DNA of 56,342 bases, counting the filler, from Bradymonadales bacterium (GTDB lineage Bacteria > Bdellovibrionota > UBA2394): assembly GCA_007693605.1 (NCBI GenBank). It is 4 parts of 4 records of this genome, joined end to end, with 100 filler letters (N's around TTAATTAATTAA, not from the genome) between each part and the next. Parts side by side here need not be neighbours in the genome. Positions count along the whole stretch, not along the records: positions 43,155 to 56,342 come from REDG01000050.1; 3 more parts are not named here. One strand, written 5' to 3'. The notes beneath the pieces were generated by a model, which did not search any database, was not told the DNA's origin, and worked only from the letters and a program-made list of their open reading frames with translations. Both the position numbers and the translations under genes were made by a program. This document shows positions 33,500 to 47,160 of the stretch, piece by piece; within the stretch, counting starts at the first letter, position 1, and the number at the start of each line of letters is the position of its first letter.

Positions 33500-33520
33500 T
33501 GAGTGCTCAGTTGGCGGAAT
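33500..33520 (+). repeat. Direct repeat of the tRNA-Leu 5' end (att-like)
   Basis: TGAGTGCTCAGTTGGCGGAAT, identical at 36553-36573 and 36685-36705. Confidence 0.88.
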
Positions 33521-33537
33521 GGTTTTAGAGAACCCCC

Positions 33538-34827
33538 TCAATCCAGACTCCTTAGACTACTTCGAAGCCCAGAAATGATAACCCCAATCAGATCACCCGA
33601 AACTGCAGAGGGGTAGCTTTGGAAAGATTTTTCCAATGACTTCGCCTTCTCACTGACTTCTTGGAGCATCTCTTCAAAAGCTTCTTTAGAAACATCAGAC
33701 GCCTTGGCGGATTCATACCAATGGCGGTTTTGAATTTCCGACAATCGGTAGTGCCTGGGAGACCCGACTCCCATAGCGAGTTTTGCTTCTTTTTTTTCGA
33801 TCTGGCGGGCCTGAAGAGCAGGGTGGAGGCTTAAGATGTCGTACAAAGGTGTTAGGCGAAAGCCTGACTTTGAAGGGAAAACACTGAAATTTTTCGCATG
33901 CCCATCTGTTCCGGCAAGCAAATAGAATAGGATCTGAGCTTTGAAAAAAGTAGCTCTATCTCTGTCCCTATAGTCAGAACTGTTTAAAAAATCCATGATC
34001 TGCTTGATCCCGACCCCGCCTCGATTTTCATACTTCTTTGTATAGGGAATGCCTAGGGCTTGGCAGAGATCTTCTTGAGGAAGTCTTGTCAGACGGGAGC
34101 CAATCCACTTTCTATCAAATCTTTCAACGACCAAACATCGAATGTCTTTGAAGTCCAAAACTTGCGACTGGGGCACCTCAAAACCAAAGTGTTTCGCAAT
34201 TTGAAGACATACCCACTCATTCTCTGCGCTCATGGTCATATCAATTCGATTCGGCAATATGCCCAAGCGAGGCTTCAAGATATGTGTTGAGGGTGTAACT
34301 CCCAAGGGACGACACCATCGATTATTCAAATAAAGAAGAGCGGTCTTTTCTTGAGCTCCTGCGATAGAAATTCGAAACTCATCACTCTCATTCATACCCA
34401 GGGGGGAGATCGAGAGATTCGAAAGAATTCTATGAATCTCCTCTTCATCAAGTGTCTTGAACTTAAGGCCTTCGGCCTTTGGAATCTCTTCATCTTTGGG
34501 GATAAACTGCAATGCCCCGACACAATCTCTTCCCATCAGGCTTAGAAGCTCGACAGGATCGGTGCTGTTTGCTTGAAACTTCTGCGCGAGTCTTTCGAGG
34601 ATGACTTCATTGTCAGGAAGTAGATTGCCAAAAAAAGAGCTGACAATGGCTCCCGTATAAGGCGCGTCCTTAATGGGCATGCTCAGCGATATTGGCAATG
34701 ACTTTCCGGCGATCCAGGCAGGCGTGTACTCAAAGCTCAATCTTCCTGAGCTCCCACGAACTAAAGTGCCGACCCTCTCGCCATTAAGAAGAACACTCAA
34801 ATGAATGCTGAGGGATCGCTTCGCCAT
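33538..34827 (-). CDS. hipA: HipA Ser/Thr kinase toxin
   Basis: LPISLSMP, NLLPD, GRDCVGAL, SIAGAQEK, ERFDR, DGHAKNFS, LTPLYD. Confidence 0.95.
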   Translation of the reverse strand: MAKRSLSIHLSVLLNGERVGTLVRGSSGRLSFEYTPAWIAGKSLPISLSMPIKDAPYTGAIVSSFFGNLLPDNEVILERLAQKFQANSTDPVELLSLMGRDCVGALQFIPKDEEIPKAEGLKFKTLDEEEIHRILSNLSISPLGMNESDEFRISIAGAQEKTALLYLNNRWCRPLGVTPSTHILKPRLGILPNRIDMTMSAENEWVCLQIAKHFGFEVPQSQVLDFKDIRCLVVERFDRKWIGSRLTRLPQEDLCQALGIPYTKKYENRGGVGIKQIMDFLNSSDYRDRDRATFFKAQILFYLLAGTDGHAKNFSVFPSKSGFRLTPLYDILSLHPALQARQIEKKEAKLAMGVGSPRHYRLSEIQNRHWYESAKASDVSKEAFEEMLQEVSEKAKSLEKSFQSYPSAVSGDLIGVIISGLRSSLRSLD

Positions 34828-35078
34828 TAGGTTTCTGGATTGCCTTTCGTTCTGGAGCGAATCACTAACTCAAGATCTAAGCCCGCCAAGAGTTTAAACA
34901 TTGTGGCCAGACGCGTTTTTTCGGCACCCCCTTCCACTTGAGAAATCGTGGGTTGTTTTACGCCTGATCTCTTGCTGAGCTCAACCTGCGGCCATTTCTG
35001 CTCGCTTCGAAATCGCTGAATGGCGGCGCCAAGTTGCTTCGCATTTCTAATAATGACTTTGGTTTTAGTCGGCTTCAT
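34827..35078 (-). CDS. hipB: HipB Xre-HTH antitoxin
   Basis: HTH QVELS..SGVKQPTISQVE; coupled to hipA. Confidence 0.9.
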   Translation of the reverse strand: MKPTKTKVIIRNAKQLGAAIQRFRSEQKWPQVELSKRSGVKQPTISQVEGGAEKTRLATMFKLLAGLDLELVIRSRTKGNPET

Positions 35079-35081
35079 ATC

Positions 35082-35153
35082 TATCCTTTACTGGGAATAA
35101 ATTGATTTTATCCTTTAATGGGTATAATTGCAACTTATCCCCTATTCGGCATA
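35082..35153 (-). promoter_or_regulatory. hipBA promoter with three HipB-type operators
   Basis: TATCC-N8-GnATA 18-mers at 35082, 35109, 35136 (27-bp period); minus-strand TTGCAA-N17-TAAAAT at 35105-35133. Confidence 0.8.
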
Positions 35154-35409
35154 GTCACAGCAAGAAAATGGGATAATTACAGCTCGTTACAAAACAATCT
35201 CCAGCAACTGCCCACTCCCGAAGGTCCGTCCAATGGGGCGCACAAACCGAGACGCGATACAGGCCCTCACTTACCAAGCCACCCCGTACTCAGGTACAGG
35301 CATGTTGCAGGATATCCTCATGAGACAAGGCAGCCCCACCTATGGGAGCTTGAGTCTCATCGAAATATTTGCGGGCCTTAGAATGACTAAGAAAAGTCGG
35401 CTCTCTGCT

Positions 35410-35425
35410 TGGCAAGGAGCTTGCA
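35410..35425 (+). promoter_or_regulatory. sigma54 promoter
   Basis: TGGCAAGGAGCTTGCA, 60 bp upstream of the 35485 start. Confidence 0.6.
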
Positions 35426-35484
35426 ATTTCATGAGGGTGGCCGTATGAGAGTGACGGGACTAACCTTAACTGTGGAGAACCGAT

Positions 35485-36282
35485 ATGAAAGCATTTACTG
35501 GAATCATTTCAACAGGCCTACTAAGCCTAACTTTTGCAACTCAAATCTTTGCTGAGGACGAAATCTTTGCTGAGGACGAAATCCTTGCTAAGGACAGTGA
35601 CCTTGCTGTGCTCCTTAAAATTTTGGGAAGGGAGAATATAAATCGCCTTAAGCGACCAGAGCCCCTCATTAGTGAGCTTAGTGAGCTTGCAGAAGAGTTG
35701 AGGAGAACAGGGTATGCCATGCATAGGTATGAATGGCGTGAAGATTCATACTCTGTTAGATTTCTTCAGGCCCCTCGGATACCATGGCAGGTAGAGGAAG
35801 TGTTGAAACGAGATCGAGCAGGACTCCTAAAGCGTCTACCAGATTCGCCTGAAGTTGTTGCCTTCCGCTGGGTTGCCCGTAGGATGTGGTCTACCAAAGA
35901 GGGCTTGTCAGCTGATCCGGGTGAGCTTTTTTTCAAGAATCTTGAAGCCGCAGTGACGGATCAGACGCTTAATCCAAAGGCAAGAGCGACTGTCGTTAAG
36001 ATCCTTAAGGAACTTTTCCCGGAAGAGGTAGAGGAATCTGGCTTCAGGGGAGTCATCGCACCTACAGAGGACGGCATGCTCGATGTTTCCGAAGCCGTAA
36101 TTGAATTGATTGAAGGCGCCTCTGCGGGAAACATTGTGAATGTGACCGTCATCCATAAACATGGAAGTTCACAGGATAAACATGGAAGTTCACAGACTGC
36201 GACTTTTGTGGTCGGCCCCAAATCCAACACAGGGGAAGCAGACGATTTTTACGACCCCGCGCCAAAGAAACAACAGAGATAG
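35485..36282 (+). CDS. Hypothetical secreted protein with short internal duplications
   Basis: Signal peptide; IFAEDE x2 and KHGSSQ x2; SD GGAG. Confidence 0.75.
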   Translation: MKAFTGIISTGLLSLTFATQIFAEDEIFAEDEILAKDSDLAVLLKILGRENINRLKRPEPLISELSELAEELRRTGYAMHRYEWREDSYSVRFLQAPRIPWQVEEVLKRDRAGLLKRLPDSPEVVAFRWVARRMWSTKEGLSADPGELFFKNLEAAVTDQTLNPKARATVVKILKELFPEEVEESGFRGVIAPTEDGMLDVSEAVIELIEGASAGNIVNVTVIHKHGSSQDKHGSSQTATFVVGPKSNTGEADDFYDPAPKKQQR

Positions 36283-36320
36283 AGACCGCTCGCTGCCTCA
36301 GTTGCAGGTCAAAGATTGCA

Positions 36321-36357
36321 AAGAGAGGGCCTAGCCAAGCTAAGCCCTCTCTTTTTT
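36321..36357 (+). terminator. Intrinsic terminator
   Basis: AAGAGAGGGCCTAGC-CAA-GCTAAGCCCTCTCTTTTTT. Confidence 0.75.
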
Positions 36358-36369
36358 GCAAAAGAAAAA

Positions 36370-36398
36370 GGGTCGGGAGACGGAAGTGCCAGACTAGC
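36370..36398. repeat. Dispersed repeat, family A, copy 3 (inverted)
   Basis: GGGTCGGGAGACGGAAGTGCCAGACTAGC. Confidence 0.9.
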
Positions 36399-36438
36399 GC
36401 AGGCTGCCAGAGCAGGTAGGCCTTGGCGGTTCATGGGA

Positions 36439-36707
36439 AATTGCTCGGCCCGATCGAGGGCCGGTTTATTTATCCAGGGGCGTCTACCAATTCCGCCTGG
36501 TCTTTGCGAGTGAGCTGTATTATTCAATCCCCCTGTAGATTCCGCGATCTACTGAGTGCTCAGTTGGCGGAATTGCTCGGCCGGATCGAGGGCCGGTTTA
36601 TTTATCCAGGGGCGTCTACCAATTCCGCCTGGTCTTTGCGAGTGAGCTGTATTATTCAGTTTCCCTGTAGATTCCGCGATCTACTGAGTGCTCAGTTGGC
36701 GGAATTG
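36439..36707 (+). repeat. 2 x 132-bp tandem repeat with sense and antisense tRNA-Leu segments
   Basis: Units start at 36444 and 36576; near identical; the last unit runs into the tRNA. Confidence 0.92.
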
Positions 36708-36774
36708 GTAGACGCGCTAGATTCAGGTTCTAGTGGGGAAACCCGTGGTGGTTCGAGTCCACTACTGAGCACCA
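36690..36774 (+). tRNA. tRNA-Leu(CAG)
   Basis: Acceptor GCTCAGT/ACTGAGC, anticodon arm CTAGA-TTCAGGT-TCTAG, long variable arm, GTTCGA T-loop, encoded CCA. Confidence 0.97.
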
Positions 36775-43154: not shown

Positions 43155-44326
<1,172 letters not shown>

Positions 44327-44479
44327 ATAAAGTAGCTCAGGTTGTTCACCTCAGCTCTTCAGTTAAATTACTGATGCATTGATTGAATTGAAAATTCCAA
44401 GAAACTGCATAAATGCAGATTTCTCGGCACTTGAGTCAAAACTTTAGACTCTTATTATACGCTCTATCACCTCTTCAAA

Positions 44480-44491
44480 TGTCAAAGAACA
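44480..44491 (-). promoter_or_regulatory. rrn boxA antitermination element
   Basis: Minus strand TGTTCTTTGACA. Confidence 0.75.
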
Positions 44492-44856
44492 CTTCACTCG
44501 CGTTGTTTTGTCACAATGCCGAATGGGAATAGTATGCTTCTACCCAAAACTGAAATCGAAAGGCAACGACGAAAATGAAAATTTTCTGAAATATTTTCAG
44601 GCCCTAGAAAACCCTCCGGAAGGCCTCACTCAAGGACCACATCGAGGGCCTTGATTTCTTGCATTTTGCCACCTACCAGAGTTCCGGACGGAGGCAATTT
44701 TGGGGAGTGGCGATCAACACCAAATAGTTTCAACCAGAGAAGGCCTGGCTCGGCGGATTCGATAGGCCCGCAAATCCTAAAGAGCGGAATGGACAAAATT
44801 TGTCATAAATGCGGGCTTGTTGGCGCCTAAGCCCCGAATTTTACTAGAAACTAGAG

Positions 44857-44872
44857 TGGCTTAGGATTTGCT
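44857..44872 (+). promoter_or_regulatory. Putative sigma54 promoter
   Basis: TGGCTTAGGATTTGCT (GG-N10-GC) upstream of 44911. Confidence 0.5.
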
Positions 44873-44910
44873 CTTTGAAGGACTAACAACGAGTTAAGGA
44901 GTATGGAGCA

Positions 44911-45492
44911 ATGAAATTTTTGATTTTGACCGTCACCAGTCTAATTGCACTAGGTATCGGCGAAGCGGACGCCAGAACGATTAACAAGGGCGACTCTTCG
45001 CTTTTGAGTCAAAGTAACGGGGGAGACCTGAGTGCTTTACCAGGGCCAGCAGAGTTTCAGAGCTGTAGATTGAGGGCAGCTGAGTCAATCCATGAATACT
45101 CACAGTCAAATGATCCTGATCAACTCCTTGAGTTTATAAGTGCAGTGGCAGACGGCCACTGCTCCGGGAGTCTAAACTGCCAGGAACTAATAAACGATTA
45201 CCTCAGCCTAAGACGCAACTGCTCTCGACACTCGAGAGGCATGCAGCACAACAATTATCAAGAGGGTGACTGCGAAACCTGCTCTTCTAAGGCGAATCAA
45301 ATCAATCAATCTTGTGGGGGCTTCGGCGGCGTGAATACGAACTGTGAAGACTGCCTACAGCACGATAGTGCCTGCCACACATGCGACAACAATGCAGTCT
45401 GCGAGTCGCAATGTGAGTATGAACAAACAGAGACCGCCTATCAGGAATGTATCTTAAGCTGTAATGCTCAATTCCCCTGCTTCAGGCAGTAG
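44911..45492 (+). CDS. Secreted Cys-rich protein (16 Cys)
   Basis: Signal peptide ending ADA; SD AAGGAG; CxxC and CxxxC pairs. Confidence 0.8.
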   Translation: MKFLILTVTSLIALGIGEADARTINKGDSSLLSQSNGGDLSALPGPAEFQSCRLRAAESIHEYSQSNDPDQLLEFISAVADGHCSGSLNCQELINDYLSLRRNCSRHSRGMQHNNYQEGDCETCSSKANQINQSCGGFGGVNTNCEDCLQHDSACHTCDNNAVCESQCEYEQTETAYQECILSCNAQFPCFRQ

Positions 45493-45512
45493 AACCGCTC
45501 GTAGTCAGAAAA

Positions 45513-45588
45513 TGGTGGACCCAGACGGGATCGAACCGACGACCTCCTGAATGCAAATCAGGCGCTCTCCCAGCTGAGCTATGGGCCC
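45513..45588 (-). tRNA. tRNA-Ala(TGC)
   Basis: GGGCCCATAGCTCAGCTGGGAGAGCGCCTGATTTGCATTCAGGAGGTCGTCGGTTCGATCCCGTCTGGGTCCACCA; G3:U70 pair. Confidence 0.97.
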
Positions 45589-45875
45589 ACTTCGTTCGGG
45601 CCCACAACTCAGCTGAACGCGCCTTCTGTTCAGGCGCTCCTCTTTCAAGTTCGCCTCCGGCTCAACCAGCTGCCCTATGGGCCCACTTCGTTCGGGCCCA
45701 CAACTCAGCTGAACGCGCCTTCTGTTCAGGCGCTCCTCTTTCAAGTTCGCCTCCGGCTCAACCAGCTGCCCTATGGGCCCACTTCGTTCGGGCCCACAAC
45801 TCAGCTGAACGCGCCTTCTGTTCAGGCGCTCCTCTTTCAAGTTCGCCTCCGGCTCAACCAGCTGCCCTATGGGCC
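45589..45875 (-). repeat. 3 x 96-bp tandem repeat with sense and antisense tRNA-Ala segments
   Basis: Identical units at 45589, 45685, 45781 directly abutting the tRNA 5' end. Confidence 0.95.
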
Positions 45876-45987
45876 TTCCTTACTCACTTTCAAACAAATG
45901 AGTCGTCACCAAACTATTCCGAGCTTGGCTTCCTTGCCAAGTCAAATCCCTCTCAATTCAGAAGCTTTGCCAAGGGCCTAAAAAAAT

Positions 45988-47049
45988 CTACCTAGAATCG
46001 GCTGAAATGAGGGCCGTCAAATGGAGTCGCGCTTCCTCATATAGAATCCGCACCCTTTCTTTGGTCAGGGAGTGCCCGCCATTCACTCTCAAGAAGTCTT
46101 CGTGTTGTCCGATTTGTTTAAAGGTAAGACCAGGACCACCCTCCAAACCATGATACAAGACGAGGATGGTTCGATGCCGTTCATCCTTCAAACGAGGCAC
46201 GGCCCTCTTTAGTGCCCGCAAGGAATCTTCATCTTCGACACGGGCCGAAGGATCTTTCCCCCCACTGGGCAGAGAAAGCTCGCCACCTGCACCAAAAGCT
46301 CCTACCAGCTTCCTGCGCCTTGCGTCCTCGTTTAGCCAATCCGCGTATTCTCGATTCAAAACACGAGTCAAAGGGGTCGAAAGCTGCAGCTTCCTACTTG
46401 GCTGGAAAGTCTCAACGACTTTGACAAGAAGGATATTGCCGAGCCCCACAAGTTCATCAAAATAATAGCCCTTTTCCGGCAGGTTTTTCGAAACAAGGAA
46501 CTGGCGAGCTATCATCTTTACAAGACTAAGATTCTTCTCAACCAAAAGGTTTCGAATTTCCAGCCTCCCTTTCATTTTTTCTTGAAGCAGGCCTTCGTCG
46601 GCTTCTGACAGACCCCAGTCCTGCCAGCCCAAGGGTCCAAGGGAGTCGAGATACAGGAAAAGCCAGTACGAAGCCGTGCGATTGAACGATTCGTCCTCTT
46701 TGAAGAAATCATCCCAACTCTTCAGAATCAAACCAGTTTGCCTCGTCTTTTGAGCATTGATTCTCCCAAAAAATGCTTCGAGCGCTGCCTCCGGCACTCG
46801 CTCTTTTAAAAACTCGACAAGCTCTCTCTCTAAGCCCTCCATGGCGAAAAACACATCCGCTCTCTGCTCATGACTTAGATCTCCAAAGTTATCTGCCTTC
46901 CTAAGAGAGGCTAAGCTTTCGAGCCTCTCTCCTGCCAGAAGAATCTGGTCGGCGCAGCCGAAAAGCGGACGACCAATAGCCCCGGCATCAGTAAACCAAA
47001 GGCCAATGATCCCTATCAAGAAAACCAGTCGAGTACGAGAACCCCACAT
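45988..47049 (-). CDS. Sigma70-like protein (regions 2 and 4) with N-terminal signal peptide
   Basis: RNLLVEKNLSLVKMIARQF..DELVGLGNILLVKVVETF; LTFKQIGQ..LTKERVR; N-terminus MWGSRTRLVFLIGIIGLWFTDAGA. Confidence 0.75.
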   Translation of the reverse strand: MWGSRTRLVFLIGIIGLWFTDAGAIGRPLFGCADQILLAGERLESLASLRKADNFGDLSHEQRADVFFAMEGLERELVEFLKERVPEAALEAFFGRINAQKTRQTGLILKSWDDFFKEDESFNRTASYWLFLYLDSLGPLGWQDWGLSEADEGLLQEKMKGRLEIRNLLVEKNLSLVKMIARQFLVSKNLPEKGYYFDELVGLGNILLVKVVETFQPSRKLQLSTPLTRVLNREYADWLNEDARRRKLVGAFGAGGELSLPSGGKDPSARVEDEDSLRALKRAVPRLKDERHRTILVLYHGLEGGPGLTFKQIGQHEDFLRVNGGHSLTKERVRILYEEARLHLTALISADSR

Positions 47050-47160
47050 CACGCGACCAGGGCTAGTCCAAAGCGAATCGAAAGCCAAGCTCGTCCCACA
47101 GATATTTACAGGCAACCAGAGCGAAACGAAGGGGCCGCTCCGCCGTCAGCCGTCGGGGGC

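Follow-up and report, generated by a model that had tools for sequence, protein, structure and literature searches.

Upstream of a tRNA-Ala(TGC) gene lies a tandem array that is one instance of a noncoding module, real, widespread, and apparently undescribed, which forms a 5' mirror of the repeats linked to tRNA 3' ends. Each unit repeats the beginning of the tRNA gene that it precedes and adds an arm antisense to that tRNA's D-arm. The module looks more like tiny selfish DNA than a purpose-built RNA switch, and we give roughly even chances to the reading that it is a small, nonautonomous DNA element living only at tRNA D-loops, although our searches turned up no enzyme that mobilizes it. The stretch of DNA analyzed here (56,342 nucleotides; hereafter, the window) consists of four contigs joined through runs of N. 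It comes from a 2.19-Mb genome of 79 contigs with 49% G+C, in which the array lies on contig C59.

The array (45570-45875) has a period of 96 nt and 3.2 copies, and it abuts tRNA-Ala(TGC) (45513-45588, minus strand, as are all features of the array). The unit fused to nt 1 of the tRNA (unit 3, 45589-45684), delimited by the repeat and its fold, is identical to unit 2 (45685-45780), and each is 96 nt long. The remaining copy (45781-45876) deviates at its first base only; by repeat and sequence comparison, unit 1 spans 45781-45875, without the first base of the tRNA head. The initial annotation had described three identical 96-nt units. The array is real and two of its units are identical, but the third is a base short, and read depth fits two copies better. 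Within unit 3, a decoy head (45666-45684) is a direct repeat of the real tRNA start, matching nt 1 to 19 with changes at 11 and 12. It is followed by a mini-hairpin with a C(GGA)G loop, predicted by DNA folding at the point where the D-loop is interrupted (45653-45661), by a sense copy of tRNA nt 22 to 31 (45630-45639; unit nt 46 to 55), by an arm antisense to tRNA nt 1 to ~29 (45598-45624), and by a 9-nt spacer that contains a C(GAA)G motif (45589-45597). Sequence comparison placed the head, sense copy, and arm where they had been described. The long contiguous helix proposed between arm and tRNA was borne out as well, with 20 contiguous pairs to tRNA nt 1 to 20 (four of them G:U) across the 9 nt, and its deviations within nt 1 to 18 (positions 8 and 10) are both G:U-compatible, as had been noted. 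None of 200 shuffles equalled the pairing of the arm with tRNA nt 1 to 36, nor did any of 200 match the fold of a single unit (-48.1 kcal/mol, z = -6.6). The Ala unit is unusual in its family in having an arm that extends to nt 1 and a spacer of 9 nt, and its body is confined to its own array within the source genome.

A possible promoter (45911-45940, minus strand), a candidate of the sigma-70 type, had been placed upstream of the array, and the array does lie between a promoter-like site and the tRNA. Our scan preferred a register with a 16-nt spacer (TTGGCA-16-AATAGT at 45940-45913, minus strand; 9/12 matches; one found versus 0.2 in shuffles), although the 18-nt register given initially is likewise present. 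Between this site and unit 1 is a small hairpin (45881-45900, minus strand) whose loop we take to resemble boxA. Farther upstream, a 375-amino-acid open reading frame (45988-47115, minus strand) resembles, by eye, a divergent sigma factor and has no Pfam match. The tRNA-Ala(TGC) gene is located outside the 16S-23S spacer, the 23S gene starting at ~44312 and tRNA-Ile(GAT) being on another contig. Within 43155-45588, what parts tRNA-Ala(TGC) from the start of 23S is a 193-amino-acid cysteine-rich open reading frame on the opposite strand together with a promoter-like sequence.

Copy number was estimated from one DNA read run (X1, possibly the source) with short sequence pieces, which makes the following depths noisy. 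Depth was 10.3 and 12.1 in the flanks, 25.8 (~2.3x) in the piece common to the units, and 11.4 (~1x) at the unit-unit junction, where three units would predict 2x. Pieces spanning the unit-tRNA and unit-unit junctions were both present at ~1x. This suggests that the bulk population carries two copies, perhaps three, or a mixture, and that one of the three copies may be missing in bulk. Because the depth of the common unit is ~2.3x, the repeat is no assembly artifact. That explanation was also rejected on the grounds that the junction pieces have reads and that the same design recurs in many independent assemblies. Two RNA runs contained only tRNA reads of other organisms and none in the Ala leader, and they are uninformative either way on expression.

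The general anatomy was described from 77 curated units, after weak rows (L058, L080, and L146) had been removed. From 5' to 3', a unit consists of a tRNA head (nt 1 to 18/19), a mini-hairpin, a linker rich in purines, in many cases a copy of nt 21 to 26, the arm, an A/T-rich spacer, and the intact tRNA. In 75 of the 77 units the decoy begins with tRNA nt 1, so that a stretch of the target gene is directly repeated at both ends, as in integrative elements that target tRNAs; it ends at nt 18 or 19 in 40 and at nt 13 or 14 in 17. Since the head is a direct repeat, the unit could be excised precisely or amplified in tandem. Typically the arm is antisense to nt ~26 to 10 of its own tRNA, with nt 15 to 26 as its steadiest section, and nt 1 to 7 of the decoy are nearly perfect (811/826 positions). 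Unit length ranges from 81 to 161 nt, with 67/77 falling within 81 to 109 nt. Among a larger set of 119 units, arrays of one, two, three, and four copies number 89, 22, 7, and 1. A TTGA motif in the spacer (55/119 versus a shuffle mean of 37.9 and maximum of 50) is weakly enriched, and its spacing does not fit a promoter role; boxA and IHF are candidate roles.

In the source genome, ARAGORN called 32 tRNA genes, 31 of which had enough upstream sequence for an arm to be sought. Nine of them (Pro, Arg-ACG, Ile, Phe, Asn, Thr-GGT, Leu-CAG, Ala-TGC, and Arg-TCT) have an antisense arm that none of 200 shuffles equalled, and for Leu-GAG 5/200 shuffles were equally good. A Leu-TAG unit stands apart from its tRNA, and the Arg-TCG units end one contig while the tRNA begins another, which illustrates how, in practice, assemblies are broken or inflated where such arrays precede a tRNA gene. 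In all, the module heads ~12 tRNA genes of this genome, and each arm fits its own tRNA, including the differing D-arm of Leu. A second instance in the window is a 132-nt unit with a Leu-specific head and arm (36558-36689, plus strand) before tRNA-Leu(CAG) (36690-36774, plus strand). It is preceded by a partial Leu unit with a degenerate head (nt 7 to 13 and 14 to 18, with 9 nt between; 36423-36557, plus strand).

The module extends well beyond this genome. A pattern scan of GTDB returned at least 120 loci, and among those listed 39 divergent tRNA pairs were set aside. An objective test for decoy plus arm was passed by 66 of the listed loci (two doubtful), including, among these matches, records titled Gastranaerophilales, Saccharibacteria, Peribacteria, Clostridia, Pseudobdellovibrionaceae, Limnocylindria, Francisellaceae, and Cyclobacteriaceae. 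A covariance model built from 44 units had matches in 12 of the 14 home-family genomes over which it was run. Of 20 new hits inspected, 17 were true units and three were false; 16 of the true ones directly precede their own tRNA and one is cut by a contig end. True units occur in 10 of 13 other home-family genomes, often at orthologous tRNAs, and intact modules adjoin their own tRNA except at contig ends and, once, at an intervening island. A strict pattern matched only 4 of 401 genomes of the phylum, a count that gives no measure of absence because the pattern misses most home-family units; likewise, an orthologue test in Saccharibacteria matched 1/71 with a pattern that was too specific. Only tRNA rose above threshold when Rfam was searched with the window (gathering scan) and with 15 unit loci (E-value scan), and no description of the module was found in the open-access literature searched. 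In sum, many uncultured bacteria carry, at their most conserved genes, a widespread noncoding module that Rfam lacks.

Evidence on the nature of the module comes from its hairpin loops. On the tRNA-sense strand, 30/77 units carry a C(GNA)G loop on a stem of at least 3 bp (shuffle mean 1.6, maximum 5), compared with 1/77 on the opposite strand. GNRA loops are not enriched (5/77 versus a shuffle mean of 2.8 and maximum of 6), and UUCG loops occur in none of the 77 curated units. As a genome-wide control, C(GNA)G loops were found in 30/619 long G+C-rich hairpins. One report (PMC13037366) gives a melting temperature of 76.5 C for d(GCGAAGC) and d(GCGAAAGC) compared with 39 C for r(GCGAAAGC), and it places mini-hairpins of the C(GNA)G type in single-stranded DNA signals for primase (replication) and in N4 promoters. 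Because C(GNA)G loops are stable in DNA rather than RNA, we read the unit hairpins as DNA-type. Across seven Arg(CCG) orthologues, few and related sequences, the 13 pairs of the hairpin are 97.8% paired and three show changes on both sides; judging from such comparisons, the unit hairpin is under selection. Some hairpin sequences are also shared, base for base, by unlike tRNA genes of separate genomes, one of them by Ile in G001 and Val in G009/G013, another by Arg in G010 and His in G007.

How a DNA element of this kind might work can be outlined. As single-stranded DNA, the unit would fold so as to imitate the D-arm (nt 10 to 26) in double-stranded form, with the hairpin extruded at nt 18/19. 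A single exchange of strands within a tRNA gene's D-loop, resolved by replication, would give exactly the order of head, unit, and tRNA. The antisense arm would supply the second strand of the folded site or guide the unit to its target, and it might stay matched to the local tRNA through template switching or conversion, while arrays could expand and contract via recombination between heads. In the transcript, the decoy would pair with the arm ahead of tRNA synthesis and RNase P would still see a cloverleaf; the host may tolerate the unit because the decoy captures the arm before the tRNA is made. As the enzyme, the leading candidate would be a trans-acting tyrosine integrase of the 5' (D-loop) type, followed by an HUH nuclease. 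Should the module be mobile, few site-specific elements so far known would be smaller, and its existence would suggest an unrecognized, base-pair-targeted recombination at D-loops. Our fuller proposal is tentative and falls short of an even chance: a cross-phylum mobile DNA of ~100 nt, guided to D-loops by its antisense arm and hidden by its decoy, or, if an RNA function holds, a D-loop-invading leader that gates maturation.

The main rival, which we consider possible but rather improbable, is that the unit is an RNA leader, maintained by the host to control tRNA maturation or set its timing, with a three-way junction as the sensor. With the arm on the decoy, the tRNA would mature; with the arm in the D-loop, an alternative cloverleaf would form with the decoy head in the acceptor stem. 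If so, the module would regulate tRNA processing in nature. In favor of this rival, units are always in sense orientation before their own tRNA and downstream of promoter-like sites, base -1 is T in 49/77, and the conserved arm core on D-loop nt 15 to 26 would form a natural toehold. The arm also tracks the D-loop of its own tRNA, with changes on both sides in 14/44 at one pair. In minimum-energy folds of 92 precursors (weak rows L058, L146, and L288 removed), decoy nt 1 to 7 lay on the tRNA 3' strand in 87, the Ala precursor being an exception, but this decoy acceptor stem stems from the exclusion of pseudoknots by the folding model. An engineered precedent is a synthetic RNase P riboswitch (PMC7897497), which indicates that leader structure can gate tRNA 5' processing, although that design has a ligand and masks the leader rather than the D-arm.

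Several tests of folding speak against such a leader. The initial annotation had likened the arm to a switch between its decoy and the real tRNA. The arm is able to pair with either, but there is no energetic balance, and at equilibrium it sits on the tRNA D-arm, the trapped state, in 77/77 units, with a median advantage of 14.5 kcal/mol in a secondary-structure model that has no tertiary contacts. In trans, the dimer is still preferred by a median of 15.4 kcal/mol in a model without tRNA tertiary contacts or modifications. The median kinetic barrier is 18.5 kcal/mol, an upper-bound estimate, and in these models the tRNA can fold only thanks to a kinetic trap. Known riboswitches and T-boxes offer no closer parallel, as there was no match to a curated family and, in the model without tertiary contacts, one fold is preferred throughout. 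Furthermore, G:U wobble, which had been taken as a mark of selection on RNA structure, is not enriched. An apparent excess of 35 versus 3 arose from scoring with a G:U bonus and was discarded. With unbiased scoring of 119 units, G.T mismatches occupied 32/1109 G/T positions and A.C mismatches 14/746 A/C positions (Fisher P = 0.22; P = 0.11 for the 31 units that were not found by pattern), and there were 54 transversion mismatches as well. Together with loops that are not RNA-type, and with tandem copies that would contribute nothing to a switch, this leaves the case for a balanced RNA switch weak.

The distribution among orthologues bears on the same question. For an unselected sample of tRNA-Val(TAC), genomes were drawn evenly from the family of G405, the head was matched in 53/71 of them, and the first 30 of 54 matches were classified. 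Twelve loci were plain, with a promoter right before the tRNA, and 12 were decoy headed (eight with an arm and four without); two had an arm but a decayed decoy, and four had other long leaders. One armless unit (L380) is still tandem. In Gastranaerophilales, roughly half of the Val orthologues carry the module. The Ala(TGC) genes of five relatives, among them G002, G005, and G024, are without the module, and the idea of a leader dedicated to tRNA-Ala is not upheld, given that the module is of a general kind, occurs patchily across orthologues, and can lose its arm. The absence of a unit from 12/30 orthologues and of the arm from four also weighs against a host-maintained leader, and the pattern is one of birth, spread among tRNA genes, and decay, with no essential switch. 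Still, units are retained at orthologous tRNAs across genera. Palindromes flanked by short direct repeats are readily deleted, and because the unit is such an arrangement, its persistence at orthologous genes needs either reinsertion or a host benefit. The retention across genera and the compensatory hairpin pairs count against the mobile-element reading to the extent that they suit host selection equally well, and the near-perfect nt 1 to 7 of the decoy also count against it. The two views are compatible, since at some genes the host may have co-opted a passenger.

An unlikely alternative, in our judgment, is that units are neutral relics of template switching (sense-antisense-sense at tRNA heads), refined by quasi-palindrome correction, carried between similar D-arms through ectopic recombination, and served by no dedicated enzyme and no function. 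The Ala unit, as a full sense-antisense-sense structure with an arm to nt 1, is what this would produce, and the patchy, decaying distribution and lack of an enzyme among our findings agree with it. What it leaves unexplained are the hairpin at the same position in the D-loop, the restriction of C(GNA)G loops to one strand across phyla, the compensatory changes in the hairpin, and the narrow range of unit lengths.

Returning to the mobile-element reading, we looked for a mobilizer and for larger elements at tRNA 5' ends. In the literature, D-loop, 5'-end-targeting islands are described at Klebsiella arg2 (bioRxiv 2020.11.02.365908). Such islands and prophages (Klebsiella arg2, E. coli argW) resemble the module in that an upstream insertion duplicates the 5' part of the tRNA, but they are kilobase sized and carry an integrase, whereas the module is ~100 nt and noncoding. 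The module has no coding capacity, and 5'-type integrases are present in the family. Both tRNA genes of the source genome that have a kilobase-scale break at the D-arm also bear units. At Leu(TAG), the tRNA lies head-to-tail behind a tyrosine integrase, and the head, hairpin, and arm lie beside cysZ, which is the neighbor of Leu(TAG) in relatives G002 and G005; the join of the two contigs is taken from the gene order of these relatives. At Leu(CAG), hipAB lies between two heads in the window, the first of which (five leader nt plus nt 1 to 16; 33500-33520, plus strand) is an orphan severed by the 2.9-kb insert. This region (33500-36443), island-like in its placement at the D-arm, contains hipA (33538-34827, minus strand), an HTH antitoxin (34827-35078, minus strand), and a 265-amino-acid open reading frame. 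The three closest homologues of the Leu(TAG) integrase include two that also lie just 5' of tRNAs (5'-type), although in the wider family 18 of the top 30 homologues are 3'-type, one is 5'-type, and 11 are without a nearby tRNA. Elsewhere in the source genome, tRNA-Ser(TGA) nt 1 to 41 and ~200 nt of similar upstream DNA recur before an AbiEii-type gene (C56:938 and C11:31619-31708). From its sequence, this duplication probably marks a 5'-type island whose crossover lay in the anticodon loop. Recombination at D-loops does take place in this lineage, and we infer its tie to the module.

That the module is an internal-deletion derivative of large D-loop-targeting islands, their left end joined to their right, is very improbable: one break in the source genome does have head, hairpin, and arm on the promoter side and an integrase on the tRNA side, but an island entering a preexisting array accounts for this case, the other 4 of 5 left ends examined are without a module, and none turned up among 49 metagenome stretches. 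One of these left ends (G119) is a fragment of nt 1 to 36 without a module, the E. coli argW left end that was read has no hairpin and no antisense arm, and the 5'-type islands of G001 have no left end assembled. In E. coli, 235 of 5,426 genomes had no single place covering 80% of an argW query (the yfdC-argW junction), and in the two such matches listed the break is at about nt 23 to 25. A prophage at the 5' part of argW was seen in E. coli NZ_CP071002.1 near 3953370 (L368:14111-14135). The 49 metagenome stretches comprised 22 units before a tRNA, two contig-end cuts, two plain tRNA pairs, and 23 fold-back palindromes or chance matches, with no orphan or autonomous copy and no island left end. 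We also considered and rejected the idea that the unit is a decoy attachment site protecting the tRNA, as an island in the decoy would still part the tRNA from its promoter.

Other searches for a mobilizer were negative within their scope. Scanning metagenome and viral contigs for integrase neighborhoods gave no hits, and two scans of viral contigs for the module pattern gave 0 and 0. Y1_Tnp genes occurred in 6/12 genomes with a Val unit and 5/12 without, and the home family had no clear pattern either. The source genome has no reverse transcriptase and one copy of IS110, considered as a candidate mobilizer. REP, REPIN, and BIME sequences are moved by RAYT Y1 transposases and combine short hairpins with GNA or CTTG loops, inverted arms, and tandem amplification. 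The module shares the short-loop hairpins, inverted arms, and tandem growth; however, it is never dispersed, follows the local tRNA sequence, and shows no Y1_Tnp association. Dispersed copies are lacking, as the Ala unit body occurs in its own array only and there are no orphan units, and the Y1 gene of the source genome is flanked by another repeat. This Y1 (RAYT-like) gene, recorded at C78:26515-26841 and at ~36370 of the window, has flanking inverted copies of a 29-nt repeat that has 26 hits in the genome and is unrelated to the module. A further, mosaic REP-like family has ~50 copies in the source genome.

Other analogues in form are integron attC sites and CTXphi attP, which are folded single-stranded recombination sites. 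Like them, the module would be an imperfect inverted repeat able to rebuild a double-stranded site with an extruded part, and it occurs in tandem arrays. The difference is that the module has no IntI or Xer site and its target would be the tRNA D-arm, its fold being predicted from DNA parameters. In three metagenome contigs, the same imperfect palindrome of the tRNA-Arg 5' half was observed (L244:1637-1692, L248:9275-9330, and L264:1653-1708), internal to the contigs, unlike perfect fold-back artifacts.

The nearest described repeats are the tRNA-linked repeats (TLRs) of E. coli, which (PMC8144298) occur within the tRNA transcription units of tyrT and nine other loci in 1 to 5 tandem copies that repeat 18 to 19 nt of the tRNA end, and for which the function of the tRNA-linked copies is described as unknown. 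Both consist of tandem units repeating 18 to 19 nt of the adjoining tRNA end. TLRs, however, lie 3' of the tRNA and repeat its 3' end, whereas the module lies 5', repeats nt 1 to 18, and adds the D-arm antisense and the D-loop hairpin. Rather than the 3' end of the unit matching the 3' end of the upstream tRNA, it is the 5' end that matches the downstream tRNA, at nt 1 to 18/19. The module is thus a testable parallel to repeats whose function has been open since 1978. The source genome also contains a second repeat family of ~140 nt on the 3' side of Ser, Trp, Cys, Gly, and Arg tRNAs (C18:2250-1816, minus strand; C18:26912; C46:17161-17018, minus strand; C53:517; C61:24112-23970, minus strand; and C75:40825-40968). 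Its body, common to several tRNAs, terminates with the T-arm and 3' end repeated, as in TLRs.
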